In this document: piece by piece, positions 30,237-49,185 of the stretch
Position numbering within the stretch: the first letter of the stretch is position 1
How the letters are laid out: every line of letters begins with the position of its first letter
Assembly (NCBI GenBank): GCA_041499965.1
Contig: JBGQLG010000008.1
Location: forward strand, 6,360-70,359
Source of the DNA: Candidatus Methylomirabilia bacterium
GTDB taxonomy: Bacteria > Methylomirabilota > Methylomirabilia > Rokubacteriales > CSP1-6
Direction: 5' to 3'
Length of the DNA: 64,000 nucleotides
Notes under the pieces: generated by a model
What the model saw: the letters and a program-made list of their open reading frames with translations, nothing else
Database searches by the model: none
What the model was told of the DNA's origin: nothing
Made by a program: the position numbers and the translations under genes

Positions 30237-30237
30237 G

Positions 30238-33472: not shown

Positions 33473-33477
33473 GTCTC

Positions 33478-34922: not shown

Positions 34923-34944
34923 CGGTGGCGGGCCCTCGGACAGG

Positions 34945-36492
34945 TTAGCGGGCGGCCCCACCGGCCAGTCGGCGCCAGCGGCGGCGCGTGAAGAGCACGT
35001 CCACGAACCACTTGGCGTAGCGCGTCTCCTCGCGACCGGTCACCGTGGCCCGCACCAGCGCGCGGACCACGCGCCAGGGCCGGAGGGCGAAGGAGATCAC
35101 GTAGAAGTTCACGAACAGCCACAGCATCGTCCAGTACAGCCGCCGAGTGGAGACCGCGGGGGCGTAGGACGGGGCCTTGGCGGTGTAGAAGTCCATGGGC
35201 GAGATGAAGAAGTCGTCGTCGAGCTGGATCCGCCCCTCCCGCTGCAGCCGCCGGAACAGCTCGGAGCCGGGGTAGGGGACGAACTTGGAGACGGCCACGT
35301 CGTAGACGCCGAGCACGGCCATGCGGCGGATGAGCGAGAGCGTCTGGCGGAGCGTGCCCGGCGTGTCGTCGGGGAAGCCGATGACGATGAAGCAGGACAG
35401 CTTGAGGCCCCGCCGCACGGCCGCCCGCATCGCGATCAGCATGTGGTCGAGGTTCACCTGCTTCTTGACCGCCTTGAGGATGGTCTTGGAGCCGCTCTCC
35501 GGCGCGAAGGCCAGCGCCCGGCAGCCCGAGCGGTAGAGCAGGTCGGCCACCTCCTCGTCGAACACCTCGGCCCGGGTCCCGCTCGGCATCTGCCAGGTGA
35601 TGTGCAGGTTCCGCCCGATGAGCTCGCGGCAGAAGTCGACGATCCACTGCCGCTTCACGATGGCCGTGAGGTCCTGGAAGTCGAAGTTGGAGACGCCGTA
35701 CGTCTTGACGTACAGCTCCATCTCGTCGGCGAGCCGGCGCGGATCGCGGGCGATCCAGCGCTGCGTCCACATGCCGGGGTTCGAGCAAAACGTGCACTGG
35801 AACGGGCAGCCGCGGGTGCCGAGCATCGGCATCGAGCGGCCGAGGTTGATGCCGTTGGTCTGATGGCGCGTGATGTACTCGCGGATGGGGAACGCGTCCC
35901 ACTCCGGCAGCGGGATGGCGTCGATGTCACGCCGCCGCGGCGACAGCCCGGTCGTCACCATGCGCCCGTCGGCGCCGCGGAAGGCGATGCCCTTCACGTC
36001 GGCGAAGGGCCGGCCGGCCGCCCGCGCCCGCAGCAGCTCGACGAACGTCTCCTCACCCTCGCCCAGCACGACGACGTCGAACGAGCTGGTGGCCAGCACG
36101 TGCTCGGGCACCGCGGTGCCGTGCTCGCCGCCCAGCACGAGCAGCGCACTCGGGAACGTCTCGCGCACGGCCTCGGCCACCCGGTGGGCCAGCGGCCACA
36201 GCGTGCTGAACATGCACGAGACGCCGACGACGTCGGTGTCGGGATGGACGCGGCGCACGATCTCGTCGAGCGTGAGGCCCTGGACCATGAAGTCGGCGCG
36301 GTCGGGGTACGGCGACACGGCGTCGAGGGCCTCGCCGGTGGCGTCGATGACGTGGTGGGGAAAGCCCGCCTCGCCGAGCGCCGCGGCGACGTAGGCGAGG
36401 CCCAGCGGTGGATTCGGGGTGTGCATCTGGAGTCCCGAAAAGGTCTTGATTCCCGGGGGGTTGATGAGGGTGATCATGTGCTGGGAACTCAC
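34945..36492 (-). CDS. B12-binding-domain radical SAM protein (class B)
   Basis: N-terminal cobalamin-binding-like domain and a canonical CX3CX2C cluster (GTRGCPFQCTFC). 515 aa. Confidence 0.85.
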   Translation of the reverse strand: MSSQHMITLINPPGIKTFSGLQMHTPNPPLGLAYVAAALGEAGFPHHVIDATGEALDAVSPYPDRADFMVQGLTLDEIVRRVHPDTDVVGVSCMFSTLWPLAHRVAEAVRETFPSALLVLGGEHGTAVPEHVLATSSFDVVVLGEGEETFVELLRARAAGRPFADVKGIAFRGADGRMVTTGLSPRRRDIDAIPLPEWDAFPIREYITRHQTNGINLGRSMPMLGTRGCPFQCTFCSNPGMWTQRWIARDPRRLADEMELYVKTYGVSNFDFQDLTAIVKRQWIVDFCRELIGRNLHITWQMPSGTRAEVFDEEVADLLYRSGCRALAFAPESGSKTILKAVKKQVNLDHMLIAMRAAVRRGLKLSCFIVIGFPDDTPGTLRQTLSLIRRMAVLGVYDVAVSKFVPYPGSELFRRLQREGRIQLDDDFFISPMDFYTAKAPSYAPAVSTRRLYWTMLWLFVNFYVISFALRPWRVVRALVRATVTGREETRYAKWFVDVLFTRRRWRRLAGGAAR

Positions 36493-36496
36493 GCGA

Positions 36497-37612
36497 TTAT
36501 ACAGCAGCCACCCGCCGGAGCAGCGCGATCTCCGTCGTCACGAGGGCTGCCAGGTCGTAGCGTGCGACCACCATCGCCCGGCCGGCCCGGCTCAGCGACT
36601 CGACCAGGGCGGCGTCGGTCAGCAGCCGGGCCAGCCGGTCCGTCAGCTCGTCGGCCCGGTGCGGGTCGAAGAGCAGCCCGGTCTCGCCGTCGACGACGAG
36701 CGAGCGATTGCCCTCGCAGTCGGAGGCCACGCACGGCACGCCGGAGGCCATCGCTTCCAGCAGCACCTTGGGATGGCCCTCGGTGAACGAGGCCAGCACG
36801 AAGGCGTCGGCGGCGGCGTAGAGAGTCGGCAGCCGCTCCTGGGGCACGACGCCGGGAAACTCGACGTCGACGCCGGCGGCGCGAGCCTGCTCGTGCAGCC
36901 GCGCCTGGAGCGGGCCGGCGCCGACCAGCACCAGCCGGATCGGCACCCGACGCTGGAGCGCGGCGGCCGCCGCGATGACCGTCTCCAGATTCTTCTCGGC
37001 CGAGAAGCGGCCGACGTAGAGCACGCGCGCCGGCCGTCCCGGTTCGCGGGGAGCGGCCGCCGGCGTGAAGTGTCGCGTGTCGACGCCGTTGGGCACGAGG
37101 TGGACCTCGCGCGCGACCCGGGCGGCGCGCGCCCGCAGCGCCTCGGTCGTGGCGATGACCGCGGTGGCGCGGCGCAGCCCCACGCGCTCGAGGGCCGCCT
37201 TCAGTACGCGCGTCGGCCCCGGCCTCGACAGCTGCGCGTAGGAGAAGCCGTAGGTCGTCACGTACGGTCGACCGAAGCGCGCGTTGGCGACGATGGCCGG
37301 GATCGTCCCGGTCACCTGGAAGACCCGCAGCACCGCGCACTCGCGAAGGCGCGCGGCTTCCGTCCAGGGAAGTGTGACCGCCCGGCGCCCGCGGCTCACG
37401 GGGCGTGAGGGGGCGACGACCTCGGCGCGCTCGAGCAAGGCGGGGTCGCTCGTGTACTCGCGAAGCGACTCGACGAGATACGTGAAGTAGACGACGTGCT
37501 CGAAAGACGCGACGTACCGGGCCAGGTAGCCGCTGAGCAGGCGGTGGGTCTGGCCGGTGGTGGCGAGCTCGCCGAGCCCGCCGCCGAGCGCGGGGAGCAG
37601 ACCCAGCGTCAC
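36497..37612 (-). CDS. Glycosyltransferase family 4
   Basis: GTGA overlap. The C-terminal GT-B domain carries SFTEGHPKVLLEAMASGVPCV. Confidence 0.85.
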   Translation of the reverse strand: MTLGLLPALGGGLGELATTGQTHRLLSGYLARYVASFEHVVYFTYLVESLREYTSDPALLERAEVVAPSRPVSRGRRAVTLPWTEAARLRECAVLRVFQVTGTIPAIVANARFGRPYVTTYGFSYAQLSRPGPTRVLKAALERVGLRRATAVIATTEALRARAARVAREVHLVPNGVDTRHFTPAAAPREPGRPARVLYVGRFSAEKNLETVIAAAAALQRRVPIRLVLVGAGPLQARLHEQARAAGVDVEFPGVVPQERLPTLYAAADAFVLASFTEGHPKVLLEAMASGVPCVASDCEGNRSLVVDGETGLLFDPHRADELTDRLARLLTDAALVESLSRAGRAMVVARYDLAALVTTEIALLRRVAAV

Positions 37613-38889
37613 GCCGCGCACACCGCCGCGTAGAGGGCGACCAGGCGGTCGACGCTGGCGTCCGCGGCGAACCGCGTCTCCACGCGCCGGCGCGCAGCGG
37701 CGCCGAGACGGGCGGCGAGCGCCGGATCGCCCAGCAGCCGCTCGACGGCGCCGGCCAGCGCCGCCGGATCGTGGCGCGGCACCAGCAGCCCGGTCTCGCC
37801 GTCGATGATCAGCTCCGGCGTTCCGCCGACGGCGGTGCCGATGACGGGCCGCCCCGCGGCCATTCCCTCCAGCACGACGCGGCTGAACGCATCCGGGATC
37901 ACCGACGGCACCGCGACCATCTCGGCCCCGGCATAGAGCGCCAGCACCTCGGGGTTCGGCAGTGGACCGAGGTGGCGCACCCACGGCACGGAGGGCACGG
38001 GAACCGGCCCGTCGCCGACCAGCACGAACAGCACGTCCGGATGCCGCCGGTGGACGTGCTCGCCGGCGGCCAGAAAATCGGCGGCGCCCTTGCCCGGCGA
38101 GAGCTTGCCGACGAAGAGCACGATCCGGCCGGCGAGGTCGTGACGCCGCCGGGCGGCGACGCCGTCGGCGGCCGACGAGGGCACGCCGAGCGGCGGGATC
38201 GTGTACACCGTCTCCACCCGGCGCGCTCGGGCCAGCAGCCCCGAGCGCCGGTAGATCCCGAGGATCCCGTCGCTGACGCCGATCACCGTGTCCACGCGCG
38301 CGATGAAGCGCTGCTTGAAGCAGGCGTCGAGCCAGCCGTGCAGGAAGGCCAGCTTCGTGCGCAGGCGGCCGCGGCGCCCGCGCATCCAGCCGTCGAAGTA
38401 TTCCACCGAGCACTCGCGCCACAGCTTGCCCAGCCCGCAGTCCGGCGGCCGGCGGTCGTGATGGTGCAGGCACACCGGGGCGGCGTCGATGAGGCTGCCG
38501 TCGCGGATCGTCAGCAGCACCGGCCGGCCGGTCAGCGCGCGGGCGAGCACGCCCGGCACCAGCATGTGCTTGTTCTGGACGTGGAGGACGTCGACGCCCT
38601 CGGCCCGCGCCAGCCGCGCGACCTGCAGGCCGGCGTAGAGATAGAAGAGCGGATTGGCCAGCACCTTGGCCGGGGCCACCGCCCGCCCGGGCGGACGCTT
38701 GACCGGGAACGCGAAGCGGCGCACCCGGAAGCCGTCGCGCGTCTCCACCGGCGGCGCCCCCCAGTTCGGCGTGATGACGACCACCGCGTGCCCGCGCGCC
38801 ACCAGCGCGCGGGCGAGTGCCTCCACGCTCCACTCCGCCCCGCCGGGCGCGTGCGGGGGAAAGTACTCGTTGACGAGCGCGATCCTCAT
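37609..38889 (-). CDS. Glycosyltransferase family 4
   Basis: ATGA overlap. Motifs MRIALVNEYFPPHAPGGAEWS and PSVIPDAFSRVVLEGMAAGRPVI. Confidence 0.85.
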   Translation of the reverse strand: MRIALVNEYFPPHAPGGAEWSVEALARALVARGHAVVVITPNWGAPPVETRDGFRVRRFAFPVKRPPGRAVAPAKVLANPLFYLYAGLQVARLARAEGVDVLHVQNKHMLVPGVLARALTGRPVLLTIRDGSLIDAAPVCLHHHDRRPPDCGLGKLWRECSVEYFDGWMRGRRGRLRTKLAFLHGWLDACFKQRFIARVDTVIGVSDGILGIYRRSGLLARARRVETVYTIPPLGVPSSAADGVAARRRHDLAGRIVLFVGKLSPGKGAADFLAAGEHVHRRHPDVLFVLVGDGPVPVPSVPWVRHLGPLPNPEVLALYAGAEMVAVPSVIPDAFSRVVLEGMAAGRPVIGTAVGGTPELIIDGETGLLVPRHDPAALAGAVERLLGDPALAARLGAAARRRVETRFAADASVDRLVALYAAVCAA

Positions 38890-39671
38890 GGCCGCCGGCG
38901 CGCCACCACCTGGAAGCCCGTCGACTCCTCGGGGTGACGCAGCGCCGACTCGCGCTTCCAGCGGGCGAGGCGCGCGTAGAGGCCGAGCGAGAGCCCGCCG
39001 AGCGCGTCGATCGCGCCGGCCCACGGCGAGTCGTACACGACGGGCATGACCGGTCCCGTCGGGACAAACCCGCCCTGCTCCAGCTCGGCCAGGAACTCCT
39101 CGCGCGTGTACTCGATCTTGTGATCGGGATCGGAGTACGAGAACAGCCCGGCCGCGCGCAACGCCCGCCGCCACGACGAATCGCGGTTCGGACCCGACAC
39201 CAGCAGGCGACCACCCGGGCGCAGCACGCGGTGGATCTCCCGGAGTACGGCCACCCGCGGGTGCAGGTGCTCGATGACGTCGAGGAACAGCGCGGCGTCG
39301 ATGGTCCCGTCGCCGAACGGAAAGCGCCCGGTGACGTCCCACCCGAAGAAGTGGGCGTTGGCGACGCCACGGGCGCGCGCGGTCTGCCGGGCCACGGTCA
39401 GATGACGCGGGTCGTAGTCGAACCCGTAGATGCGCCGGCAGCGGGCAGCGGCGACGACGGTGTGGGCACCGAGGGCGCAGCCGATGTCGATGACGGTATC
39501 GGTCGGCGCCAGGTGCTCGAGGTACCAGTCGTGCCAGGGTGAGTCGATCAGGTGCTTGGGGTGGATGAAATGCGGGCTCTTGCCCGTGTAACGCACCAGG
39601 CGCACGCCCACCGACTTGCCCTTGCGGTTGACCACGTCGACCGTGCGCACCAGCCACCGCGCGGGGGTCAT
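38886..39671 (-). CDS. Class I SAM-dependent methyltransferase
   Basis: ATGA overlaps at both ends. Motif I is VIDIGCALGAH, with LRPGGRLLVSGP. Confidence 0.8.
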   Translation of the reverse strand: MTPARWLVRTVDVVNRKGKSVGVRLVRYTGKSPHFIHPKHLIDSPWHDWYLEHLAPTDTVIDIGCALGAHTVVAAARCRRIYGFDYDPRHLTVARQTARARGVANAHFFGWDVTGRFPFGDGTIDAALFLDVIEHLHPRVAVLREIHRVLRPGGRLLVSGPNRDSSWRRALRAAGLFSYSDPDHKIEYTREEFLAELEQGGFVPTGPVMPVVYDSPWAGAIDALGGLSLGLYARLARWKRESALRHPEESTGFQVVARRRP

Positions 39672-40792
39672 CGTCGCGCGCCGGCCGAGGCCGGCCGCCG
39701 CCACGCCGCCACCGCCTCCTCGTAGACCGCCGTGGTGCCGGCCACGCAGCGGTCCCAGCGGAAGCGGGCGTCGATCCGCGCTCGGTTCGCCCGGCCGAAC
39801 ACCGCGCGCCGCCCGGGGTCGGCGAGCAACGTCGCGAGCCCGTCGGCGAAACGCTCGGGCGCGGCCGGGTCGACGAGGAAGCCGCCCTCGCCGTCCACGA
39901 GGATCTCGGGGATCGCGCCGCGGTCGGAGCCCACGACGGGCAGCCCGCAGGACATCGCCTCGCCGATGGCCAGACCGAATCCCTCCATCGCCGAGGGGAA
40001 CACGAAGACGTCGGCGAGGTTGAAGTGGTCGACCTTCTCGGCCTCCGGCACGTAGCCGGTGAACACGACGCGGCGGCCGAGGCCACGCTCGCGCGCGCAC
40101 CGCTCCAGCTCGGCCCGGAGCGGACCGCCGCCGGCCACGACCAGCCGCGCCGCCGGCGCCGTGGCCGCCACCCGCGCGAACACGTCGAGGAGCAGCGGCA
40201 GGTTCTTGCGCGGCTTGAGGCCCCCGAAGAACAGCACCACGGTGGCGCCGCCGAGACCGTAGCGCTCGACGAGGTCGGCGCGGCGCGGGCCCGGCGCGAA
40301 GCGCTCGTCGATCCCGTAGGGCACGACGGCGACGTGATCGGTCCGGCACCGGAGCTCCGTGGCCAGCTGGCGCCGCGCGAACTCGCTGCCGACGACCACG
40401 CGCTCGGCGCCCTCCACCACGCGCCGCTCGATCACCCGGTTGAGCCGACCGGGATCGAGGTGGTGGTGGTGCGCCACGACGGGGACGTCGAGCCGGAAGC
40501 GCCGGCGCGCCCACAAGGCCGACGGACCGATGATGCGGAGCGAGTGGACGCGAAGCAGATCGAAGCCGCCGGCGTCCCACACCCGCTTGATGGCGCGGGG
40601 CACGACCGCCGGCGCGACCCACCAGCGCAGTCCCCGACCGATGCCGAAGCGGTGGATCGTCCAGTTGGGCGCGTCGGCCGGATAGCGCTTGCCGCGGGCC
40701 AGGATGACGTCGAGCCGCACGCCGCGGCGGCCGAGGCGCACCAGGAGCTCGCGCTCGTACGTTTCGCCACCGGAGGTCGTCTCCGGCGCCAC
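39668..40792 (-). CDS. Glycosyltransferase family 4
   Basis: Carries PSAMEGFGLAIGEAMSCGLPVV. The annotated GTG 40792 start removes a conserved-looking LRICTPHCG N-terminus, so a CTG 40819 start (CTGA overlap) is possible. Confidence 0.8.
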   Translation of the reverse strand: MAPETTSGGETYERELLVRLGRRGVRLDVILARGKRYPADAPNWTIHRFGIGRGLRWWVAPAVVPRAIKRVWDAGGFDLLRVHSLRIIGPSALWARRRFRLDVPVVAHHHHLDPGRLNRVIERRVVEGAERVVVGSEFARRQLATELRCRTDHVAVVPYGIDERFAPGPRRADLVERYGLGGATVVLFFGGLKPRKNLPLLLDVFARVAATAPAARLVVAGGGPLRAELERCARERGLGRRVVFTGYVPEAEKVDHFNLADVFVFPSAMEGFGLAIGEAMSCGLPVVGSDRGAIPEILVDGEGGFLVDPAAPERFADGLATLLADPGRRAVFGRANRARIDARFRWDRCVAGTTAVYEEAVAAWRRPASAGARR

Positions 40793-40815
40793 GCCGCAGT
40801 GGGGCGTGCAGATCC

Positions 40816-41598
40816 TCAGGACGTCCTCGCCCGTCCCGACGCGGACCCCCGCGGCTTGACGTAACGGGCGTAGGACTCGTCGCCGCGCAGCGGCACGACG
40901 GCCTCGAGGCTCTCGTGGAGGAACGAGAGAACGCTCGCGCGCTCGGCCGCGCTCTCGACCAGGTTCTCGCGGCCGGCGTCGTCCGAGAAGTTGAGGAAGA
41001 GCGTACCGCCGGGCTTGAGGTGGGCGACGAGGTGGCGCACGACGTCGAGGGGATTCACCACGTGCTCAAGCACCTCCAGGATCGTGATCACGTCGTAGGC
41101 CCGCGGCAGGGGGAGCTCGCGGCCGAACCCGGGCTCGAGGAACTCGACGTTGCCGGCCGCTCGAAAGCGCCAGCGCGCGAACTCGAACGTGGGCACCGGC
41201 AGGTCCACCAGCGTGAACCGCCAGCGGGGGAACCGGGGCCGCAGCCAGCTGGTCACCGGCCCGACGCCCGAGCCGTACTCGCAGAAATCGCCCTCGGGGC
41301 CGACCGCCCGGAGCGCCGCGGCGACCCAGTAGAAGCTGCGGTGACGATGGTAGAACATCTGCCGCAGCACGTAGTAGTCGGTCTCGGCGAAGAACGAGCG
41401 GTAGTCGGCCTCGCCCGAGCGCGGCTTGGTGCCCCACAGCTTGGCCGCTTCCATGCGGAGCACGGTGTAGCGCACCCAGAACTCCTGCATCGTCATGCCG
41501 CGGTAGTACTCCGACAGCTCACGGAACCAGCGGCGGCCGAGCCCGACCTTCTCCAGCCCCTGGCTCAGCCGACGGTGGACCGTGTCCCGCCCCGTCAT
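40816..41598 (-). CDS. SAM-dependent methyltransferase
   Basis: Motif I is FCEYGSGVGPV, with LKPGGTLFLNF. 260 aa. Confidence 0.75.
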   Translation of the reverse strand: MTGRDTVHRRLSQGLEKVGLGRRWFRELSEYYRGMTMQEFWVRYTVLRMEAAKLWGTKPRSGEADYRSFFAETDYYVLRQMFYHRHRSFYWVAAALRAVGPEGDFCEYGSGVGPVTSWLRPRFPRWRFTLVDLPVPTFEFARWRFRAAGNVEFLEPGFGRELPLPRAYDVITILEVLEHVVNPLDVVRHLVAHLKPGGTLFLNFSDDAGRENLVESAAERASVLSFLHESLEAVVPLRGDESYARYVKPRGSASGRARTS

Positions 41599-41599
41599 C

Positions 41600-42391
41600 T
41601 CAGCGCACCTCCCGGCGGCCGGCGATGAACTCGATGTACGGCGCGACCCCGCGCACGCGATAGTACGCGCGCACCAGCGGCCACAGCGGCCCGCCCACCG
41701 GCCGGCCGAGGCCGAGGTCGAACTGCCGCAGCAGCCGGCCGCCCGCCTGCTCCAGCAGGCGCAGGCACTGCCGCTGCGAGAGCGGGCGCAGCGTTGCCAG
41801 GTACGCGGTGGGGCGGCCGCGAGCGGCCAGGTAGGCCCGGCCCAGCGCCAGCGGCAGGCCCGGGATCCAGAAGACCTTGTAGTGCCCCTCGAAGCAGCTG
41901 CGCCGGTCGTTGGTGTGCAGGTACAGGCGCGCCTCCGGCCGCATCACCCGCACCATCTCCCGCAGCGACTGGGCGGCGTCCTCCACGTGCTCGATGGCCG
42001 CGTAGCAGTAGACGATGTCGAAGCTGGCGTCGGGGAACGGCAGCGCCTCGGCCATCGAGCGCAGCGCGCGTGCGCCGTGGCGCATGCGGGCGCGCGTGAT
42101 GGCCACGGCGTCGGCCGAGTCGTCCACGCCCCACACCTCGGCGCCCGCCTCCTCGGCCAGCGCGTTGAAGCCGCCGGTGCCGCAACCCACGTTCAGCAGC
42201 CGCGCGCCCTTGATGGACCCCCCCATCCCCCGCTCCAGCGCGTCGAGCCGCTGGCGCTCGTAGGGCTCGTCGGCGAGCCGGATGTCGACGAGACCGCGCC
42301 AGCCGGGGATGCCGAGGGTGTCGCGGTAGTAGCGGGTGTAGTACCGCTCGAGCGCGGCGCTCACCTCCGGACGCGGGCGGCTCTCAGGCAC
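41600..42391 (-). CDS. Class I SAM-dependent methyltransferase
   Basis: Motif I is LLNVGCGTGGF. It also has VWGVDDS and AAIEHV. Confidence 0.8.
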   Translation of the reverse strand: MPESRPRPEVSAALERYYTRYYRDTLGIPGWRGLVDIRLADEPYERQRLDALERGMGGSIKGARLLNVGCGTGGFNALAEEAGAEVWGVDDSADAVAITRARMRHGARALRSMAEALPFPDASFDIVYCYAAIEHVEDAAQSLREMVRVMRPEARLYLHTNDRRSCFEGHYKVFWIPGLPLALGRAYLAARGRPTAYLATLRPLSQRQCLRLLEQAGGRLLRQFDLGLGRPVGGPLWPLVRAYYRVRGVAPYIEFIAGRREVR

Positions 42392-44459
42392 GGCGGAACA
42401 CCGGCTGGATGACGGGCCCGGCGAGGCGTGCCTCCACGTCGTCGGCCGTGACGGCCCGGGCCAGCACGGTCAGGGCCTCCCGGCAGGCCGCCAGCGTGCG
42501 CTCGACGTCGGCGTCGTCGTGGCGGTAGCAGATGTTGAAGCCGCCCGCGTTGAGAATGCCGCGGCGCACGACCTCCTGCTGGAAGAGGCTCTTCATGGCC
42601 AGCGACTCCCGCCCCTGCCGGTCGGCGAAGGTCAGCACGGTGCGCGGCGGCAGGCCGATGCAGCGCGTGAGGCCGTCGATCTTCAATTCCCCGGCGAGCG
42701 CGTTGTACCCGTCTTGCAGCCGGCGACCCTGGCGCCACAGGTGCGGGATGACGGCCCCGGCGCGCAGCTTGGTGATCGTGGCCTTGGCCGCGGCCAGCGA
42801 GAGCGCCTCGCCGCCGAAGGTGAACGAGAAGAAGATCTCGTCGAAGACCTGCATGATGTCGCGCCGGCCCACCACCGCCGAGACCGGGAAGCCGTTGGCC
42901 ATCGCCTTGCCGATGCAGGCCAGATCCGGCGTGACGTTGTAGTGCGCCATGGCGCCCCCGAGCGCCACGCGGAAGCTGGTCACGACCTCGTCGTAGATCA
43001 GCACGGCGCCGTGGGCCCGGGCCCGCGCGGCCACCTGCTCGAGGAAGCCGCCGACCGGCTCGACGACGCCGACCGGTTCCATGATGACGGCCGCGAACTG
43101 GCCCGGGTGGGCGTCGAGCAGCCGGTCGAGCGAGGCGATGTCGTTGTAGGCGAACAGGTGCGTCAGCTCGCGCACCGCCGCCGGCACCCCGCGGTGACGC
43201 GTGGTGGCGCCGATGTACCAGTCCTGCCAACCGTGGTAGCCGCAGGCGGCAATGCGTTCGCGGCCGGTGTAGGCGCGGGCCACGCGGACGGCGCCGGACG
43301 TCGCGTCGGAGCCGTTCTTGCCGAAGCGGACCATCTCCGCGCACGGGATGATCTCGGTGAGTAGCTCGGAGACCTCCACCTCCAGCGGGTGCGGGAGCGA
43401 GAAGGCGATGCCGTCGGCGAGCTGGGCTCGCACGGCCGCGTCCACGTCGGGATCGTTGTGGCCGAGCACGATCGGCCCGAGGGCCATCGGGAAGTCGATG
43501 TACTCGTGGCCGTCCACGTCCCACACGTGGCTGCCGGCGGCGCGCTGCAGGAACAGCGGAGCGACGCCCCGCACGAACTGGGTGTGGCCCTTGCTGAACG
43601 TCTGGGTGGCCGACGGGATGACCTTCTCGGCGCGCGCGAAGTACTCCTCGGAGCGCGTGAGCCGGCGGGGCGTGTCCATGGCTGACTCTCCCGGTGCGTC
43701 GCCGGCCGCGCCGTCGGCGCGGAGCGACTTCGCGTAGCCTTCGTTGCGCGTGAACGAGCGATTGAGGTCGAGCAGCGCCGGTTCGCGCTCCAGCAGCGCC
43801 AGCACGTCGTCCATGCCGAACGGCTGCTCGGCGCCCAGGCGCCGGTAGACGGCGCGGACGAACTCGAGGTCGGCCGGCTCGTCCACGGTCCAGCGCAGGA
43901 CCGAGAGATCCTCGTCGTGGCGGACGTTGGCCAGCCGGAACCGCCGGGGCTGCTTCCAGATGAAGGGCGTGACGTGCTCGCGCTCCGAGGCCAGCCGGGC
44001 CTCGCGCCACGCCGTGTCCAGGGCCGAGAACGAGAACACCTCGGTGTCCTGCCCGTCGGGAAACGTCGGCGGCTGGGTGTTGCTGACGTAGTCGAGCCCT
44101 CCGCCGGACTCGCGGAAGCGTGCGAGCACGCGACCGGCCACCGCCGGGTCGAGTAGCGGGCAGTCGGGCGTGACGCGGACGATGACGGTGGCGTCGAAAC
44201 GCGCGGCGGCGCCGTGCACGCGATCGAGGACGTCCGACTCGCTGCCGCGGTGCACCGGCAGCCCCGCGGACTCGGCGAACGCGACGATCGCGTCGTCGGC
44301 CGACTGGTCGGTGGTCGCGATGATCACCGCGTCCACGCCGTCGATGCGCCGGGCGCGCTCGACGAGACGCTTCAGCATGGGGCGGCCGGCGATGTCGGCC
44401 AGGGTCTTGCCGGGCAGCCGGCGGGAGCCCATGCGGGCCTGCACGATGGCCGCGATCAC
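42384..44459 (-). CDS. Fusion protein: SpsF-type cytidylyltransferase (N) + class III (HemL/GSA-aminomutase-like) aminotransferase (C)
   Basis: Single 691-codon frame with no stop between domains. The N-terminal domain has IVQARMGSRRLPGKTL and RVTPDCPL. The C-terminal domain has FSKGH, GKNGSDATSGAVRVAR, IYDEVVTSFR and a PLP-Lys region IGKAMANG. GTG 44459 gives a GTGA overlap. Confidence 0.8.
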   Translation of the reverse strand: MIAAIVQARMGSRRLPGKTLADIAGRPMLKRLVERARRIDGVDAVIIATTDQSADDAIVAFAESAGLPVHRGSESDVLDRVHGAAARFDATVIVRVTPDCPLLDPAVAGRVLARFRESGGGLDYVSNTQPPTFPDGQDTEVFSFSALDTAWREARLASEREHVTPFIWKQPRRFRLANVRHDEDLSVLRWTVDEPADLEFVRAVYRRLGAEQPFGMDDVLALLEREPALLDLNRSFTRNEGYAKSLRADGAAGDAPGESAMDTPRRLTRSEEYFARAEKVIPSATQTFSKGHTQFVRGVAPLFLQRAAGSHVWDVDGHEYIDFPMALGPIVLGHNDPDVDAAVRAQLADGIAFSLPHPLEVEVSELLTEIIPCAEMVRFGKNGSDATSGAVRVARAYTGRERIAACGYHGWQDWYIGATTRHRGVPAAVRELTHLFAYNDIASLDRLLDAHPGQFAAVIMEPVGVVEPVGGFLEQVAARARAHGAVLIYDEVVTSFRVALGGAMAHYNVTPDLACIGKAMANGFPVSAVVGRRDIMQVFDEIFFSFTFGGEALSLAAAKATITKLRAGAVIPHLWRQGRRLQDGYNALAGELKIDGLTRCIGLPPRTVLTFADRQGRESLAMKSLFQQEVVRRGILNAGGFNICYRHDDADVERTLAACREALTVLARAVTADDVEARLAGPVIQPVFRRA

Positions 44460-45457
44460 GGATCGAGCCTCACCGGGCGCCCCTCGGCGGCGGAGCGCTT
44501 GGCGGCCAGGGCAATCGCCAGCACCGTTCGCCCGCCGGCCGCGTCCAGCTGGGGAGTCGCGCCGCGCTCGATGCAGTCGACCAGGTGGCGCAGCTCCTCG
44601 ACGTACATGAGATTGCGCTCGGCGTTGATCGACTCCTCGTAGTCCTCGGCCCGGCGATCCTCCTTGCCGTACACGCGGACGAGCTGGCTGATGTAGTCCC
44701 ACACGATCACGCCGTCCTCGCCGATCAGCTCGCACGACCGCCGGTACGTCCGCTGCAGGTAGTCGAGGTGCACGTTGGCGACCACGCCGTAATCGAAGCG
44801 GAGCAGGATGTCCGCGCTGTCCTCGGTGTCGATCTCCAGCGTGCTCACCTTGCCCACGTACCCGAAGACCTCACGCGGCTCGCCCAGCAGCCAGCGCAGG
44901 TAGTCGAACTCGTGAATCGAGTCGAGGATGATTCCGCCTCCGGTCGCCTGCCGCGCCGCGTACCCGTGCCGGTAGTCGGTGTGCGGACGCCAGTGCGGCA
45001 GGTAGTACCCGCAGTGCGCCCGCGCCGACAGCGGCGTCCCGATCCGCCCCTCGCCCAGCAGCCGCTTCACCAGCCGCAGGCTCGGCAGGAAATGCAGGTT
45101 GCACCCGACCAGCACCGTCCGCCGCGCCGCCGCCGCCTCCGCCACCAGCCCATCGACGCCCTCGAGCGTGTGCGACAGCGGCTTCTCGATCAACACATGC
45201 CGCCCCGCCGCCACCGCCGCCCGCGCCTGGGCCACATGCGCGGCGGTCGGTGAACACACCAGGACGGCATCGGCGTCCACTCGCAGCGCCTCATCCTCAC
45301 GCGTCGTGAGCACGACATCTCCACCCGCCAGACGCCCGGCCTCCGCCAGCCGGCCCGCGTCCGGATCGTGGATCGCGGCGATCGTATGACCAAGCGCCAC
45401 CGCATTCGTGAGATGTCGCCGCCCGATCGACCCCGCCCCGAGCACGACGAAGCGCAT
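44456..45457 (-). CDS. Gfo/Idh/MocA family NAD(P)-dependent oxidoreductase
   Basis: Motifs MRFVVLGAGSIGRRH and LIEKPL, with a C-terminal alpha/beta domain. 333 aa. Confidence 0.85.
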   Translation of the reverse strand: MRFVVLGAGSIGRRHLTNAVALGHTIAAIHDPDAGRLAEAGRLAGGDVVLTTREDEALRVDADAVLVCSPTAAHVAQARAAVAAGRHVLIEKPLSHTLEGVDGLVAEAAAARRTVLVGCNLHFLPSLRLVKRLLGEGRIGTPLSARAHCGYYLPHWRPHTDYRHGYAARQATGGGIILDSIHEFDYLRWLLGEPREVFGYVGKVSTLEIDTEDSADILLRFDYGVVANVHLDYLQRTYRRSCELIGEDGVIVWDYISQLVRVYGKEDRRAEDYEESINAERNLMYVEELRHLVDCIERGATPQLDAAGGRTVLAIALAAKRSAAEGRPVRLDP

Positions 45458-45481
45458 GGAGCTAGTGCACCTCGTGAGCAT

Positions 45482-45657
45482 CGGTGACACCGGCGCCGTG
45501 ATGCGGGCCCCCCGGTCGCCTCTCACGGTCGGCTGCCCTCACCCCAACCCCCTCGGGGGGATGGGGGGCCGAGCGCGCGCGGCTCGGAGCGAGCCGCGGC
45601 GTGCCGGCGAGCCACTGGGGCGACCGGGGGGCCCGCATCACGGCGCCGGTGTCACCG
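45482..45657. repeat. Nested inverted-repeat element, family A copy 2 (39-nt perfect arms 45482-45520 / 45619-45657)
   Basis: The arms are exact reverse complements. The core CCCCAACCCCCTCGGGGGGATGGGGGGCC lies at 45541-45570. The element fills the 216-nt gap inside the glycan operon. Confidence 0.85.
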
Positions 45658-45673
45658 AGCCTCGCGCGGCGCA

Positions 45674-47434
45674 CTAGACATCCGCCCGCGTGGCCCCGCG
45701 CACCGCGCGCTTGCGCTCCTGCAGCTCGCCGGTATGCGGATGCCGCAGCGTATTCTGACCGCCGAGCTCCGTCACCGCCCGCCAGGAGAGATCGATGATC
45801 TCCTCGTCCTCCAGGTCGCTGAAGTTCGTGCGCACTTCCTCGCCCTGCTCCCCCAGCCGCAGGAAGTACTGCTCGATCATGTCCTCGTCGGCCGGCCCCT
45901 TCTCGCCCGTCACCGCCTTGCCGATGAGCCCCTTGTCGAGCGCGAGATCCCAGAAGGTCGTGCCCGGATAGGCGGTGGTGAAGAAGAACACCTCCGGCTT
46001 GAGCCCCACCTTGCGGCAGAAGTCGACGGTCTCCTGCACGGTATGAGCGCTCTCGCCGGGCGAGCCGATCATGAACGAGCAGTCGGCGTAGCCGAGCACG
46101 CGCTGGGTCTCGAGAATGGCGATCTCCATCTTCTCGATGGTCTGGCCGCTCTTGTCGATGTTCTTGAGGATGGTGGGGCTGGCCGACTCCACGCCGTAGC
46201 CGGCCTGGCGCATGCCGACCTCGTGGCCCAGCTCCAGCATGTGCGGCCGACCCTCCCGGCGCGCGCGGATGACGTCGTCGGCCACGATGTTGGTGCGGCA
46301 GGTGCCGCCCCACTCCACCGCGAAGCCCGTCGCGTGCTTGCGCGCGCGCAGCTCGGCGAAGAACTCCAGCGCCCACCGGTAGTCGGTCATCAGCAGGTCG
46401 TCGAGGAAGTGGATGTAGACGGCGCCGTAGCGCGCCTTGAGGTACTCCATCTCGTCCACCACCTCGCGCGGGCTGCGCAGGCGATAGGTTTTCCCGAGGT
46501 ACGCCGCATAGCAGTAATCACAGGCCTTCGACGCGTAGGGACAGCCGCGCGAGGCGATCATCGAGACCGAGTACTGGCCAGGCGCGACCGAGGCGCCGTC
46601 GATCCACTTCGTCTGCCAGTTGAGGTGGCCGACGGGGTTGCGCTTGTAGATCTCGTCCTCCGGCCACTTGCTGCGCAGGGGCCACGGCAGCGCGTCCAGC
46701 CCCTTGTCGCGCGACTGGATGGAGGGTCGCAGGCCGTTGTTGCGAACGTCCCACTCCCCGGGGCGGATCACGTGGCGATAGGCGGTCCCGGCCACACCCT
46801 CCAGCGAGGCGCCGGTCTCCAGGCGGTGCAACACCTCCGAGAAGGTGACCTCGCCCTCCTCCTGCACCACGATGTCGGCGGGCAGCCGGCGGACCATGAA
46901 CTCCGGCATCGACGACGCGATGCCACCGCCGAGCACGATCGGCACGTCCGGATGCACGCGCTTGCAGATGCCCGCGATACGCCTGAGCCACGTGTACTGG
47001 GTGATGATGCCGCCCAGCCCGATGACGTCGGGCCGCTCGGCGCTCAGCTTCTCGACGACGCGCGCCTCCACCCTCCGCACGTAGTCGGCCATCGGGCCCT
47101 TGACCGGCTCCCGCCGCTCGGCGTTGAGGTCGAGCACGTCGACCGTGTGGCCGTCCATGGCGGCGATGGCGCCGACGTAGCCGTGGCCGATCGGCATGAT
47201 GTTGGGGAACGACCATTCGCGGATCGGCGCGTTGATGAAGAGTACGCGGAGCCCGTCGCGGCGCGGCGCGAACTGTCGCTCGGACGTCTCGGTGGTGATG
47301 CGCGGCCAGTCCGCGGCCTGCACCTCACCGCTGATGAAGCGCTGGTGAAACCGGGCCGGCGGCGCGCCGCCGGCGGGACGCCGGATCGACGGCAACGGGA
47401 CGGTCGTGGTGCCGATGTCACGGATGATCGCCAT
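45674..47434 (-). CDS. B12-binding-domain radical SAM protein with atypical Cys spacing
   Basis: 586 aa with an N-terminal cobalamin-binding-like domain. The cluster region SRGCPYASKACDYC reads CX6CX2C rather than CX3CX2C. Confidence 0.75.
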   Translation of the reverse strand: MAIIRDIGTTTVPLPSIRRPAGGAPPARFHQRFISGEVQAADWPRITTETSERQFAPRRDGLRVLFINAPIREWSFPNIMPIGHGYVGAIAAMDGHTVDVLDLNAERREPVKGPMADYVRRVEARVVEKLSAERPDVIGLGGIITQYTWLRRIAGICKRVHPDVPIVLGGGIASSMPEFMVRRLPADIVVQEEGEVTFSEVLHRLETGASLEGVAGTAYRHVIRPGEWDVRNNGLRPSIQSRDKGLDALPWPLRSKWPEDEIYKRNPVGHLNWQTKWIDGASVAPGQYSVSMIASRGCPYASKACDYCYAAYLGKTYRLRSPREVVDEMEYLKARYGAVYIHFLDDLLMTDYRWALEFFAELRARKHATGFAVEWGGTCRTNIVADDVIRARREGRPHMLELGHEVGMRQAGYGVESASPTILKNIDKSGQTIEKMEIAILETQRVLGYADCSFMIGSPGESAHTVQETVDFCRKVGLKPEVFFFTTAYPGTTFWDLALDKGLIGKAVTGEKGPADEDMIEQYFLRLGEQGEEVRTNFSDLEDEEIIDLSWRAVTELGGQNTLRHPHTGELQERKRAVRGATRADV

Positions 47435-47446: not shown

Positions 47447-48133
47447 TCAAGATCGTACCGACCGGATCAGCTCGAATGCCTCGGCGTAGGGCAGCCCGAC
47501 CACCGAGCCCCACCGCCGCGCGATGGCGCGCACCGCCTCGCCCGAGCGCGGGTGGGGAAACGGCCGGTGCTCGCCACGGTACCGCTCCAGCGCGGCGACC
47601 TTCAGCTCGATGGTGGACGCCACGTCCTCGAATACCGTGGGCGCGAAGGGCGCGGCCAGCCGGCCGAACGCCCACTCGGTCGACGAGGCGATCTCGAACG
47701 CGTAGAGCTCGCGCACCCGGCCGCCCGGCAGCGGCCGCGTCGCGGTCAGCACCGCCTGGAAGGTCAGCCGGTGGTCGACGTTCAGGTCGCCGGGATGATG
47801 CGTGTAGACGATCTCCGGCTCCAGCTCGCGCACCCACGCCTCGACGCGCTTGACGATGTCGAGGAGCGCGAGCGTGTCGAAGCGATTGTCGGGGAGGTCG
47901 CCGAACGCCACCGACTTGGCGCCCAGCATCCCGGCCACCGCCCGCGCGTCGTCCTGCAGCGCGCCGACCGCGGCCCGATCGCCGCCGGCGCGCTCCGGCG
48001 TGCGAGAGGTGATGCCCTCGCCCAGGATCGCCAGGTGGACGGTGTCACCGGCCGCCGCCCGGCGGGCCGCGGTGGCGCCGACGCCGAGGACCTCATCGTC
48101 GGGATGGGCGGCCACGACCAGGATCACACTCAT
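47447..48133 (-). CDS. PIG-L/LmbE family de-N-acetylase
   Basis: ATGA overlap. Motifs VVAAHPDDEVLG and HPGDLNVDH. Confidence 0.85.
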   Translation of the reverse strand: MSVILVVAAHPDDEVLGVGATAARRAAAGDTVHLAILGEGITSRTPERAGGDRAAVGALQDDARAVAGMLGAKSVAFGDLPDNRFDTLALLDIVKRVEAWVRELEPEIVYTHHPGDLNVDHRLTFQAVLTATRPLPGGRVRELYAFEIASSTEWAFGRLAAPFAPTVFEDVASTIELKVAALERYRGEHRPFPHPRSGEAVRAIARRWGSVVGLPYAEAFELIRSVRS

Positions 48134-49185
48134 CCGCCCGCCTCCAGCGAGTCCAGCAGGCCATCCAGCGCGGCGGGCGGCAGCGCCGACAGGTCGGTGC
48201 GGAAGAACGCCCGCGCCCGCCACAGGCGGGCGGTGGGCCAGCTCCACCACGCCAGTCGCCGCAGCCGCTCGACGACGGCCGGGGGGAAGCGGGAGCGGAT
48301 CAGCCGGGCTGGATTCCCGGCGTAGATCCCGTACGGTTGATCGAGGCTGCTCGTCACGACGCTGCCGGCGCCGATCACGCAGCCGTCGGCGACGCGGACC
48401 CCGGGCAGCACGACCACCCGGGTGCCGAACCACACGTCGTTGCCGATCACGATGTCACCCACCTTGTCGGCCGGCTCGCCCAGGAACGCGTAGGGCCCGC
48501 GGCTCACCGCGAACGTGGTCGGCAGGTGCAGCGTGTGGCGCGAGCCGATGGCCGCGAAGTAGGACGACGTGTGGCAGAACGCGCCCAGGCGGAAGCGGGC
48601 CGTGTACAGGTTCAGCTCGGCGTCGGCGCCCAGCAGCGAGCCGCGCCCGATCTCGACGGCGGCCTCGTTGTGGATCACCGCGCGCGGGTTGATGCGCGCG
48701 CCGTAGCCGAGCACGATCCGCTCGGCGTTGGTGATGATGACCGGCTCGCCCTCCAGGCGCGCGTACCAGCGACCGCCGCCGCCGGTGCCGTCGTCGCCCG
48801 GGTAGTCGTCGTCGAAGGCGGCGACCTGCTCGGCCTGCTCGGCCGAGTTCACCGCGCACAGGCCGCGCTGCCAGGCCCGCACGACGAGCGCGCCGGCGCC
48901 GGCGCCGGCCGCCAGCAACGCGTCGTGGCCGTCGAACAACGCCGGCGCGGGCTCGGGGGCCGCGCGTACCTCGACGGTGCCGGCCGCGCCCGGCGCCAGG
49001 TCGGTGACGAAGCGCCGCAGCGCCTCCACCGCGTCCGTCCGCGCGCCGGGCACGGCCAGCGTGAAGGTGCGCGCCCGGCCGGCGCCGCCCTTCACCAGTG
49101 CGGCCAGCCGCGGGTCAGCCAGCAAGGTGTCGAGCGCGTCGGCGGCGAGCAGGAACCGGGTGAGCGTCAGCCGCGGCGCCGTCAC
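48130..49185 (-). CDS. Hexapeptide-repeat (XAT/CatB/Vat-like) O-acetyltransferase with ~150-aa N-terminal domain of unknown function
   Basis: GTGA overlap. The C-terminal half has IGNDVWFGTRVVVLPGVRVADGCVIGAGSVV and GNPARLIRSRF...LAWWSWP. No family was recognised for the N-terminal half. Confidence 0.75.
   Translation of the reverse strand: MTAPRLTLTRFLLAADALDTLLADPRLAALVKGGAGRARTFTLAVPGARTDAVEALRRFVTDLAPGAAGTVEVRAAPEPAPALFDGHDALLAAGAGAGALVVRAWQRGLCAVNSAEQAEQVAAFDDDYPGDDGTGGGGRWYARLEGEPVIITNAERIVLGYGARINPRAVIHNEAAVEIGRGSLLGADAELNLYTARFRLGAFCHTSSYFAAIGSRHTLHLPTTFAVSRGPYAFLGEPADKVGDIVIGNDVWFGTRVVVLPGVRVADGCVIGAGSVVTSSLDQPYGIYAGNPARLIRSRFPPAVVERLRRLAWWSWPTARLWRARAFFRTDLSALPPAALDGLLDSLEAGG

Follow-up and report, generated by a model that had tools for sequence, protein, structure and literature searches.

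Flagella, S-layers, capsules, and LPS are coated with nonulosonic acids, which influence motility, immune recognition, and sensitivity to phage or serum. Among the enzymes that close NeuB-dependent pathways by CMP activation, FlmC (CCNA_02946) and SpsF, both of the COG1861 type, share their motifs with the cytidylyltransferase (CT) described here, but they are single-domain proteins of ~240 aa, and no aminotransferase or Gfo/Idh/MocA (GFO) or aldo-keto reductase (AKR) partner has been reported in those pathways. A Pse pathway of six enzymes rebuilt in E. coli is completed by FlmC, which has no homology to PseF (PMC7591256). B. subtilis spsF is needed for the transfer of legionaminic acid but not for its synthesis (PMC7439481).

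The closest described loci carry the same families as separate genes. An AKR, pseF, and a class III aminotransferase (AT) gene occur together in the group I flagellin glycosylation islands of about 90 Aeromonas strains (PMC7874193) and also in the L. pneumophila Sg6/Sg12 LPS cluster (PMC3694923), which agrees with the statement in a first-pass annotation of this DNA that cytidylyltransferases and class III aminotransferases adjoin in nonulosonic-acid loci. Gene order in both is as here (pseB, pseC, oxidoreductase, cytidylyltransferase, class III aminotransferase, pseG ... pseI/neuB), but the genes are split and the oxidoreductase is an AKR rather than a GFO; the likeness of these aminotransferases to the domain studied here is one of annotation and synteny. 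In A. hydrophila AH-1 (subgroup IA), the AKR and the class III aminotransferase are the only extra genes of the island.

Pairs of a dehydrogenase and an aminotransferase offer a second comparison. WbpB/WbpE and NtdC/NtdA are GFO and aminotransferase pairs that carry out oxidation–transamination, and KdnB/KdnA make 8-amino-Kdo (Kdo8N), an ulosonic acid that is CMP-activated afterwards. All three share the logic of a dehydrogenase that yields a keto or aldehyde sugar for PLP-dependent amination, KdnB being an iron-type alcohol dehydrogenase. The aminotransferases WbpE, NtdA, and KdnA are not known to belong to the GSAM-like class III group, nor is a fusion of any of them to a cytidylyltransferase known. 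Fusions of a nucleotidyltransferase with a PLP enzyme do occur in phosphonate pathways, in the PntC-AEPT type and in FrbH; these resemble the present protein in binding a cytidylyltransferase covalently to a PLP enzyme that uses or supplies a CMP-linked substrate, and differ in their cytidylyltransferase and PLP families and in their phosphonate substrates.

A continuous cytidylyltransferase–aminotransferase frame

The window, by which we mean the whole 64-kb stretch of DNA that was analyzed, encodes a protein in which, unlike in FlmC or SpsF, the cytidylyltransferase carries a 430-aa class III aminotransferase:

42384–44459, minus strand: fusion CDS, 691 aa, comprising cytidylyltransferase, linker, and class III aminotransferase (PF02348 and PF00202)
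43767–44459, minus strand: N-terminal FlmC/SpsF-type cytidylyltransferase domain, aa 1–231 (PF02348; 6OEW and FlmC matches)
43665–43733, minus strand: variable linker rich in Ala, Gly, and Asp, aa ~243–265 (~20 aa), pLDDT <50
43677–43692, minus strand: SD-like GGGAGAG, 6-nt spacer, and in-frame ATG (Met261) in the linker sequence
42384–43664, minus strand: C-terminal GSAM-like class III PLP aminotransferase domain, aa 266–691 (PF00202, E 6e-47)
42990–42992, minus strand: cofactor Asp D490, invariant in 27 homologues
42906–42908, minus strand: PLP lysine K518, invariant in 27 homologues

The first-pass annotation had read this gene as an in-frame fusion of the two families, a reading borne out by an uninterrupted frame, two Pfam domains, and the related loci. 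The first-pass annotation gave no strand; translation of 42384–44459 on the minus strand gives a stop-free frame of 691 aa followed by TGA, in which both peptides cited earlier, IVQARMGSRRLPGKTL and LRADGAAGDAPGESA, are found. Pfam places CTP_transf_3 at aa 3–175 (E 2.4e-31; 109.7 bits vs a gathering cut-off of 22.6) and Aminotran_3 at aa 301–589 (E 6.4e-47; 160.6 bits vs 30.5), and GC3 in the fusion frame is 0.90–0.98 along the entire gene, with 0.93 over the linker. A single fusion frame is unbroken in 83 of 84 related loci, which were assembled independently; the exception, L082, is interrupted at aa 254 by an in-frame stop. At the junction itself (43650–43750), where a check of the assembly had been advised, two Logan contigs from sediment-metagenome run X1 (43300–43726 and 43697–44100) show 0 differences and 0 gaps, and a 296-nt contig from run X4, belonging to a related strain, covers 43588–43883 with differences that are substitutions only, so that contigs from both runs cross without indels. 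The fusion is genuine and is no assembly artefact.

Most homologues have a linker that is shorter by ~9 aa (alignment A1, columns 280–300). Translation might also begin internally at Met261 and yield the aminotransferase on its own, and the GGGAGAG/ATG DNA motif is kept in L005 and L006 despite differing adjacent linker residues.

The cytidylyltransferase domain is modeled with pLDDT >85, its fold reaching ~aa 231, and it matches PDB entry 6OEW from Leptospira (E 1e-33; Foldseek TM 0.90). In the PDB it is related to synthetases of CMP-Kdo and CMP-Neu5Ac, and aa 1–231 align with aa 1–231 of C. crescentus FlmC over the full length (42% identity, E 3e-45). The superfamily motif R-x-x-S-x-R-x-P-x-K and the acidic motifs are present, in residues common to 6OEW and FlmC, and QAR(7–9), R14, PGK(16–18), D99-C100-P101, and E161-H162 are invariant in 27 homologues of 60–91% identity. 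Canonical PseF (TIGR03584) was rejected as an identity, at 32.1 bits vs a cut-off of 205.7 and over the N-terminal 70 residues only, a result that agrees with the published statement that FlmC lacks PseF homology (PMC7591256).

The aminotransferase domain is ~30% identical to GSAMs in the PDB (E 2e-61), and K518 and D490 align with the GK and DEV of GSAM 6W80, which hold the PLP Lys and Asp; judged from these conserved residues, the domain is predicted to be catalytically intact. Its AlphaFold model is poor, with pLDDT <50 over much of aa 236–551. Solved relatives include enzymes that aminate sugar aldehydes or ketones, such as the aminoglycoside C-6' aminotransferases and NeoN. The earlier label of "HemL-like" stands as a statement of superfamily resemblance, HemL sharing with this domain the fold-type I class III PLP fold, the PLP lysine, and the aspartate, but not as one of identity, every GSAM equivalog cut-off being missed (TIGR00713, 249.2 vs 527.3; NF004856, the best NCBIfam match of the domain, 425.8 vs 486; NF009055, 229.2 vs 637). 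Context likewise rejects HemL: the neighbors in the window and in >60 related loci are Pse-type or polysaccharide genes, not tetrapyrrole genes, and unlike HemL the domain sits in a polysaccharide operon and is joined to a cytidylyltransferase.

A pseudaminic-acid-type operon with an oxidoreductase partner

The fusion gene belongs to a pseudaminic-acid-type operon with PseB, PseC, PseG-like, NeuB, and GNAT genes:

41600–42391, minus strand: class I SAM methyltransferase (Pfam Methyltransf_11), downstream of the fusion in the same operon
44456–45457, minus strand: Gfo/Idh/MocA oxidoreductase (PF01408/PF22725/PF02894), upstream of the fusion
50915–51358, minus strand: GNAT, PseH-like N-acetyltransferase (TIGR03585 the best match but weak, 38.6 bits vs a cut-off of 93.1, E 1e-9)
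51366–52427, minus strand: NeuB/PseI-type nonulosonate synthase (NeuB and SAF Pfam; located by tblastn)
53698–54678, minus strand: PseG-like UDP-sugar hydrolase (TIGR03590 the best match, 110 bits; cut-off 153.55)
54675–55865, minus strand: PseC, DegT-family aminotransferase (TIGR03588, 433.1 bits vs cut-off 423.5)
55858–56844, minus strand: PseB, inverting UDP-GlcNAc 4,6-dehydratase (TIGR03589, 464.2 bits vs cut-off 407.75)

The synthase scores 302.7 bits for NCBIfam NeuB (cut-off 399.65) and 267.5 bits for PseI (cut-off 340.25), its Pfam and NCBIfam scores having been taken on the L001 copy, which is 99–100% identical to that of the window. The GTG start of the fusion (44459–44457) overlaps the TGA of the GFO gene as GTGA, and the GTG start of the methyltransferase overlaps the fusion stop as GTGCCTGA. 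In the whole 64-kb window, no further homologue of the cytidylyltransferase, the class III aminotransferase, the GFO, or NeuB was found; the fusion domain is thus its sole cytidylyltransferase, in keeping with the earlier remark that no separate PseF was recognized, and it stands alone in 65 of 67 related loci, just 2 having a second one. This context, together with the homology to FlmC, leads us to infer that the domain is the CMP-nonulosonate synthetase of a Pse-type pathway.

Across phyla, the gene order PseB-PseC-oxidoreductase-fusion-PseG/GNAT-NeuB is kept, with PseB in 69/73 loci, PseC in 64/73, and NeuB in 65/67, and in most loci the oxidoreductase–fusion unit is placed between pseC and pseG/pseI. 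Five related loci (L017, L021, L047, L048, L055) have no PseC within 8 kb. Directly upstream of the fusion lies a GFO gene in 68 of 77 related loci and an AKR gene in 3 more, making an oxidoreductase in 71; AKR takes the place of GFO in Proteobacteria and in some other loci. Moreover, the oxidoreductase can itself be fused to the cytidylyltransferase, as GFO-CT (P0127, P0147, P0159), as AKR-CT (P0152, P0184, P0203), or in GFO-CT-AT triple fusions (P0157, P0063). From this adjacency and these fusions we conclude that the three enzymes form one obligately linked module, and the dehydrogenase and the aminotransferase are genetically coupled by the GTGA overlap, the 71/77 adjacency, and the triple fusions. 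The tie to the adjacent oxidoreductase, first proposed from a single locus, is therefore stronger than had been claimed, resting on 71/77 upstream genes and on Rosetta-stone fusions that, with CT-AT, point to one functional unit. The canonical six-enzyme Pse pathway leaves an oxidoreductase and a class III aminotransferase beside the cytidylyltransferase unexplained in hundreds of genomes, Aeromonas and Legionella serogroups among them.

Candidate reactions of the module

We tentatively favor, at somewhat less than even confidence, a bifunctional Pse-type enzyme that would combine CMP activation with an oxidize-then-transaminate tailoring of the nonulosonate, possibly at C8. In such a route, PseB, PseC, and the PseH-like, PseG-like, and NeuB enzymes would make the nine-carbon acid, which the N-terminal domain of the fusion would activate with CTP to give a CMP-nonulosonate. 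The translationally coupled GFO would oxidize one of the nonulosonate's secondary hydroxyls to a keto group, most plausibly at C8 and on a substrate already linked to CMP, and the class III domain would then aminate that position. The resulting CMP-nonulosonate would bear an extra amino group and be usable by downstream glycosyltransferases. The aminotransferase substrate, the carbon modified, the order of steps, and any channeling are what we infer here.

Several observations sit poorly with this scheme. AKRs usually reduce carbonyls and do not oxidize alcohols. Minimal loci have no obvious third N-acyltransferase, so that the new amine would have to remain free. Where PseC is missing from the surrounding 8 kb, as in the five loci named, the main pathway might itself depend on the class III domain. 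The L. pneumophila non-Sg1 O-antigen, as cited in PMC3694923, is a D-glycero-D-talo stereoisomer, 5,7-diamino and without a third amine; if made by the Sg6/12 cluster, it would count against a third amine. The only hint at a product, weak and circumstantial, favors the scheme: the unsolved Pse-like glycan of A. hydrophila AH-1 has a mass of 403 Da, 87 Da above Pse5Ac7Ac (PMC4691044), an odd nominal mass that would fit a third nitrogen but could equally reflect an acetamidino group.

A more specific form of this tailoring route, which we regard as doubtful, is that the trio is the hitherto unrecognized route to CMP-activated triamino nonulosonates, for example 5,7,8-triamino-3,5,7,8,9-pentadeoxy acids, tailored on the CMP-sugar with the cytidylyltransferase as scaffold. 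A natural 5,7,8-triamino nonulosonate has reportedly been found in Tenacibaculum maritimum. If the proposal were true, it would add a third, zwitterionic class of sialic-acid-like sugars, spread over >15 bacterial and archaeal phyla and including Aeromonas and Legionella.

Acyl-variant nonulosonates are common, and the aminotransferase and oxidoreductase might instead build an N- or O-acyl side chain (glutamyl-, seryl-, or glyceroyl-type) from a small semialdehyde or keto acid, leaving the cytidylyltransferase to activate the finished nonulosonate. We consider this improbable. The closest family to the aminotransferase is that of the glutamate-1-semialdehyde aminomutases, whose ligand is an amino-aldehyde acid of five carbons, but the protein falls below all GSAM equivalog cut-offs; the AKRs that stand in for GFO at many loci typically reduce small aldehydes or ketones, and by mass arithmetic the +87 Da of the AH-1 glycan over Pse5Ac7Ac equals a seryl addition or an exchange of acetyl for glutamyl, yet minimal loci lack a ligase or extra acyltransferase for the attachment, and a GFO or AKR together with an aminotransferase fused to the cytidylyltransferase better fits a shared CMP-linked or nonulosonate substrate.

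We give a similarly low probability to early action of the class III domain on a keto hexose (4-keto or other) carried by UDP, as an alternative or second PseC-like enzyme, with the oxidoreductase as a hexose-stage ketoreductase or dehydrogenase. The five loci named above do have PseB, an oxidoreductase, the fusion, and NeuB with no DegT-family aminotransferase within 8 kb, and the position between pseC and pseG/pseI would suit such a role. A PseC that passes its equivalog cut-off is present besides the class III domain, however, in 64/73 loci and in the window, and known NDP-hexose aminotransferases are of the DegT type, not class III. The hexose C3 hydroxyl must stay free for the nonulosonate ring, leaving no obvious extra position, and the fusions link the aminotransferase to the last enzyme of the pathway rather than to the first.

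Editing of a product already made is a further reading that we think unlikely: the class III domain would epimerize a carbon bearing an amino group, or strip off the amine to leave a ketone for reduction by the AKR or GFO, giving a stereoisomer or hydroxy variant of Pse. Epimerases and racemases do belong to the class III family: a GenB2-type 6'-epimerase/aminotransferase, isoleucine 2-epimerase, and an amino-acid amide racemase are among the PDB matches of the domain, the preference of AKRs for reduction fits, and the L. pneumophila non-Sg1 O-antigen cited in PMC3694923 is just such a stereoisomeric (D-glycero-D-talo) 5,7-diamino acid. Both the window and 12/67 loci have PIG-L deacetylases alongside the module, enzymes that would release a free amine, but most loci lack them, and stripping an amine newly placed by PseC would be wasteful.

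That the fusion is an artefact or functionally meaningless (a stop or frameshift that was overlooked, gene decay, an accidental fusion of a true tetrapyrrole-pathway HemL, or halves made separately from an internal start) is very improbable: the SD-like GGGAGAG and in-frame ATG kept in close relatives, the L082 stop at aa 254, and a split form in haloarchaea are outweighed by a junction confirmed in independent contigs, continuity in 83/84 loci, a linker GC3 of 0.93, invariant catalytic residues in both domains, a TIGR00713 score of 249 vs 527.3 for HemL, and a polysaccharide rather than tetrapyrrole neighborhood.

Homologues and database names

Relatives of the fusion are encoded in at least 566 species-level genomes from >15 phyla, the best 80 all being full-length fusions, and 118 of the top 120 database homologues have the fused architecture. 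With these counts, and with IMG already labeling such fusions automatically as bifunctional ("GSA aminomutase/SpsF"), any claim of rarity or novelty would be an overstatement. This is one more, unexceptional member of a widespread family whose architecture is common and already in databases, and by itself the gene is no surprise; as a compact, expressible single polypeptide, the fusion lends itself to working out the reaction.

The same fusion occurs in a cultured bacterium, Pseudosulfitobacter pseudonitzschiae SMR1, on plasmid pSMR1-1 (WP_089422657.1; 35% identity, 99% coverage), where it sits between pseC/AKR and pseG-pseI. In the haloarchaeon Halorussus aquaticus (WP_254270395.1/WP_254270396.1), GFO, cytidylyltransferase, and aminotransferase are three adjacent genes, with the order kept. 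RefSeq names hide the cytidylyltransferase half and call for correction: the Pseudosulfitobacter fusion is named only "aminotransferase class III-fold PLP-dependent enzyme", and the split Halorussus cytidylyltransferase "glycosyltransferase family protein".

The fusion gene and the cluster around it

The fusion protein, which joins an N-terminal FlmC/SpsF-type cytidylyltransferase (CT) to a C-terminal class III aminotransferase (AT) resembling glutamate-1-semialdehyde aminomutase (GSAM), is encoded at 42384-44459, the coordinates given in the first-pass annotation, and lies on the minus strand, with 691 sense codons without interruption followed by TGA. Pfam assigns CTP_transf_3 to aa 3-175 (E 2.4e-31) and Aminotran_3 to aa 301-589 (E 6.4e-47), and GC3 is 0.90-0.98 in every 60-codon block, linker block included (window G+C, 72.4%). 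The fusion is real. At 43650-43750, where a missed stop or frameshift had been a concern, independent Logan contigs cross the junction without indels: in run X1, two contigs (43300-43726 and 43697-44100) match the window with 0 differences and 0 gaps, and in run X4 a 296-nt contig from a related strain, covering 43588-43883, shows substitutions only. Runs containing the window sequence are sediment metagenomes. The CT and AT matches share one frame in 84 loci from independent assemblies, stop-free between them in 83; the Omnitrophota locus L082 has an in-frame stop at residue 254 of an otherwise fused-type gene, with domain order and frame kept. Together, these contigs and frames bear out the in-frame fusion and rule out an assembly artifact; we consider an artifactual fusion highly improbable.

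The GTG start of the fusion overlaps the TGA of a Gfo/Idh/MocA oxidoreductase (GFO) gene, just as the GTGA coupling described earlier implied, and its own stop is overlapped by the GTG of the next gene downstream, both of which argue for a tightly coupled operon. Some neighbor annotations come from a 99-100% identical relative (P0001/L001), not the window itself.

Features of the cluster (window coordinates, strand, assignment)
56861-59215, minus, ABC exporter
55858-56844, minus, PseB (score above equivalog cut-off)
54675-55865, minus, PseC (score above equivalog cut-off)
53698-54678, minus, PseG-like protein
52424-53701, minus, conserved 425-aa protein between the PseG-like protein and NeuB
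51366-52427, minus, NeuB-type synthase
50915-51358, minus, PseH-like GNAT
49182-50912, minus, carbamoyltransferase (NodU-like)
48130-49185, minus, hexapeptide acyltransferase
47447-48133, minus, PIG-L deacetylase
45674-47434, minus, first B12-radical SAM enzyme
44456-45457, minus, GFO
42384-44459, minus, CT-AT fusion
Downstream of the fusion to about 36.5 kb, minus, methyltransferases and GT4 glycosyltransferases
34945-36492, minus, second B12-radical SAM enzyme
22619-41598, minus, cluster continuation: five class I methyltransferases, GT4/GT2/GT1 glycosyltransferases, the second B12-radical SAM enzyme, a second DegT, an NAD-epimerase/dehydratase and a Wzy_C ligase or polymerase

This is a ~37-kb, heavily methylated surface-polysaccharide cluster built around a pseudaminic acid (Pse)-type sugar, ABC exporter included. 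No other cytidylyltransferase is found within the 64 kb, in keeping with the earlier remark that the locus lacks a separate PseF (the canonical Pse-pathway CT), and the rest of the window likewise holds no second class III aminotransferase, GFO or NeuB. The sole sizeable intergenic gap of the otherwise overlapping operon (45458-45673, 216 nt) lies directly upstream of GFO; searches of it and its surroundings found no Rfam family and neither a sigma-70-like promoter nor an intrinsic terminator. The carbamoyltransferase, hexapeptide acyltransferase and PIG-L deacetylase sit between the NeuB/GNAT genes and the GFO-fusion module, and their presence suggests that the sugar undergoes N-acyl exchange and O-carbamoylation; PIG-L orthologs (47-61% identity) lie ahead of NeuB in 12 of 67 related loci. 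The B12-radical SAM enzymes hint that the nonulosonate undergoes C-methylation or some other radical modification. In Dehalococcoidia and Planctomycetia loci (L012, L020, L031, L048), orthologs of the first, at 67-72% identity, adjoin the genes for GFO and the fusion. The 425-aa protein, which has no match in Pfam or NCBIfam, is 65-74% identical in the closest relatives (L005 4213-5439, L006 4143-5474).

A widespread family with a predicted CMP-nonulosonate synthetase domain

The fusion gene belongs to a large family with existing database annotation, and the fusion itself would not surprise a specialist. A survey of domain architectures found both domains in 118 of the 120 best database homologs (58-92% identity, 647-1031 aa), and fused homologs already carry JGI product names. 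Scanning one genome per species recovered at least 566 relatives, the best 80 of which are all full-length fusions from organisms including Methylomirabilota/Rokubacteria, Acidobacteriota, Desulfobacterota, Thermodesulfobacteriota, Chloroflexota, Planctomycetota, Verrucomicrobiota, Omnitrophota, Elusimicrobia, Binatia, Dadabacteria, Clostridia, Bdellovibrionota and Woesearchaeota; the closest genome among the matches listed is a Candidatus Methylomirabilia MAG (92% protein identity). The cultured alphaproteobacterium Pseudosulfitobacter pseudonitzschiae carries the fusion on plasmid pSMR1-1 (L087 8989-11022), where RefSeq names it solely [quoted passage not shown] a name that omits the CT half and thus renders the PseF equivalent of this locus invisible in annotation. 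In the haloarchaeon Halorussus aquaticus, GFO, CT and AT are separate genes, with a split CT/AT pair in the order of the fusion (L086 8983-11118) that RefSeq calls "glycosyltransferase family protein" and "aminotransferase class III-fold."

The N-domain differs from canonical PseF, scoring 32 bits against TIGR03584, below the cut-off of 205.7. In E. coli, a reconstituted Pse pathway of six enzymes is completed by Caulobacter crescentus FlmC, even though this cytidylyltransferase is described as having "no homology to RkpN or PseF" (PMC7591256); the FlmC sequence, translated from the synthetic operon in that paper, aligns along its entire length with the window N-domain at 42% identity (E 3e-45). 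In Bacillus subtilis, spsF mutants make legionaminic acid but are unable to transfer it (PMC7439481). Given this homology, the spsF phenotype and the presence of a second cytidylyltransferase in just 2 of 67 related loci, the assignment of the N-domain as the predicted CMP-nonulosonate synthetase of the pathway is well supported. Foldseek matched this domain best to 6OEW, an uncharacterized cytidylyltransferase from Leptospira borgpetersenii (TM 0.90, rmsd 1.7 Å), and its other solved sequence relatives are CMP-Kdo and CMP-Neu5Ac synthetases.

Oxidoreductase, CT and AT as a probable functional unit

Across 83 related loci the recurrent order is PseB-PseC-oxidoreductase-fusion-PseG/GNAT-NeuB, with PseB upstream of the fusion in 69 of 73 loci, PseC upstream in 64 of 73 and NeuB present in 65 of 67. 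GFO lies directly upstream of the fusion in 68 of 77 loci, and an aldo-keto reductase (AKR) fills its slot in three of the remainder. Searching the N-domain alone against 1.8 billion representative proteins returned many stand-alone forms of ~250 aa, together with GFO-CT (P0127, P0147, P0159) and AKR-CT (P0152, P0184, P0203) fusions in which the oxidoreductase is N-terminal, GFO-CT-AT fusions (P0157, P0063) and a CT-CT fusion (P0121). The initial suggestion that the CT and class III AT families adjoin in nonulosonic acid loci agrees with published Pse loci, where they are neighbors along with an oxidoreductase: about 90 Aeromonas strains carry separate genes for pseC, AKR, pseF, class III aminotransferase and pseG (PMC7874193), and the same unfused order occurs in L. 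pneumophila Sg6/Sg12 (PMC3694923). Class III aminotransferase, SpsF and Gfo all go unmentioned in papers on the flagellin glycosylation islands of Clostridium and Geobacillus. The recurrent order, the range of fusion types and the unfused proteobacterial order suggest that oxidoreductase, CT and AT act together, with CT central to every fusion; the CT-AT fusion is one of several ways in which evolution joined the same trio. Defining this trio as a unit is a useful outcome, and the single fusion polypeptide offers a means of assaying directly a proposed tailoring step of this widespread sugar pathway.

Five compact loci (L017, L021, L047, L048, L055) have PseB, oxidoreductase, fusion and NeuB and, within 8 kb, lack any aminotransferase of the DegT family (PseC); the only aminotransferase there is perhaps the class III domain, or else pseC is encoded at another genomic site. 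Sinorhizobium fredii NGR234 has a stand-alone class III aminotransferase on pNGR234b (L085 8920-10365) with 43% identity to the C-domain. We rejected its placement in the rkp-3 Pse region with its known K-antigen structure, as by Pfam its neighbors (flippase, pyruvyl transferase, acyltransferase, transposases) form an unrelated exopolysaccharide locus; no cytidylyltransferase is found at this locus, and the AT subfamily is thus not confined to nonulosonate loci.

Possible chemistry and anatomy of the module

In the scheme that we favor, which has a somewhat less than even chance of being correct, the N-domain would CMP-activate a nonulosonate, the oxidoreductase would turn a secondary hydroxyl into a ketone and the class III domain would transaminate that ketone, leaving an added amino group. 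Oxidation-transamination is performed by several dehydrogenase-aminotransferase pairs, including WbpB/WbpE, NtdC/NtdA and KdnB/KdnA, and among the PDB structures related to the C-domain are aminotransferases whose substrates are sugar aldehydes and ketones. On chemical reasoning the position favored is C8, because C9 is a methyl in this sugar class and a 4-keto group beside the anomeric center would promote CMP loss; we give C8 specifically a fairly low probability. An 8-amino nonulosonate is reportedly made by Tenacibaculum maritimum. In the O-antigen cluster of this species, "locus 2" is said to contain an aminotransferase and an oxidoreductase, families not given (PMC9796276). In A. hydrophila AH-1 (subgroup IA), which has a 403-Da Pse-like glycan, the sole extra island genes are a reductase and a class III aminotransferase, a combination that is suggestive of an added amine without being diagnostic; the odd mass could equally be explained by an acetamidino group, making this a weak lead. 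A. caviae Sch3N (373-Da glycan) appears to have a different island type, beside O-antigen genes.

Oxidation-transamination is weakened as a reading by the usual role of AKRs in reducing rather than oxidizing, by minimal loci without a third acyltransferase and by the five loci without PseC within 8 kb. The aminotransferase and oxidoreductase might instead serve side-chain synthesis, the aminotransferase might act early, on a UDP-hexose, or the module might perform stereochemical editing; we consider each of these three improbable. A true HemL is ruled out by equivalog cut-offs and gene context.

An alignment of 27 homologs sharing 60-91% identity with the window protein shows the CT motifs Q7-A8-R9, R14, P16, K18, D99-C-P and E161-H162 to be invariant, as are AT residues D490 and K518, which align with the cofactor aspartate and PLP lysine of a solved GSAM. 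An AlphaFold2 run on this alignment modeled the N-domain at pLDDT >85 and the AT domain poorly (mean pLDDT 69, pTM 0.43), so the model gives nothing on domain packing; Foldseek with the fusion model returned 6OEW and GSAMs again and nothing further. The sole poorly conserved part of the fusion is the linker (aa ~243-265), ~9 residues longer in the window's clade. Within it, at 43677-43692 (minus strand), GGGAGAG is followed after 6 nt by an in-frame ATG (Met261), an arrangement resembling a ribosome-binding site with a start codon for an aminotransferase translated on its own. Linkers in other phyla, which are shorter, lack this DNA motif; it is kept in Methylomirabilia and Rokubacteria relatives (L005, L006), in which adjacent linker residues vary.
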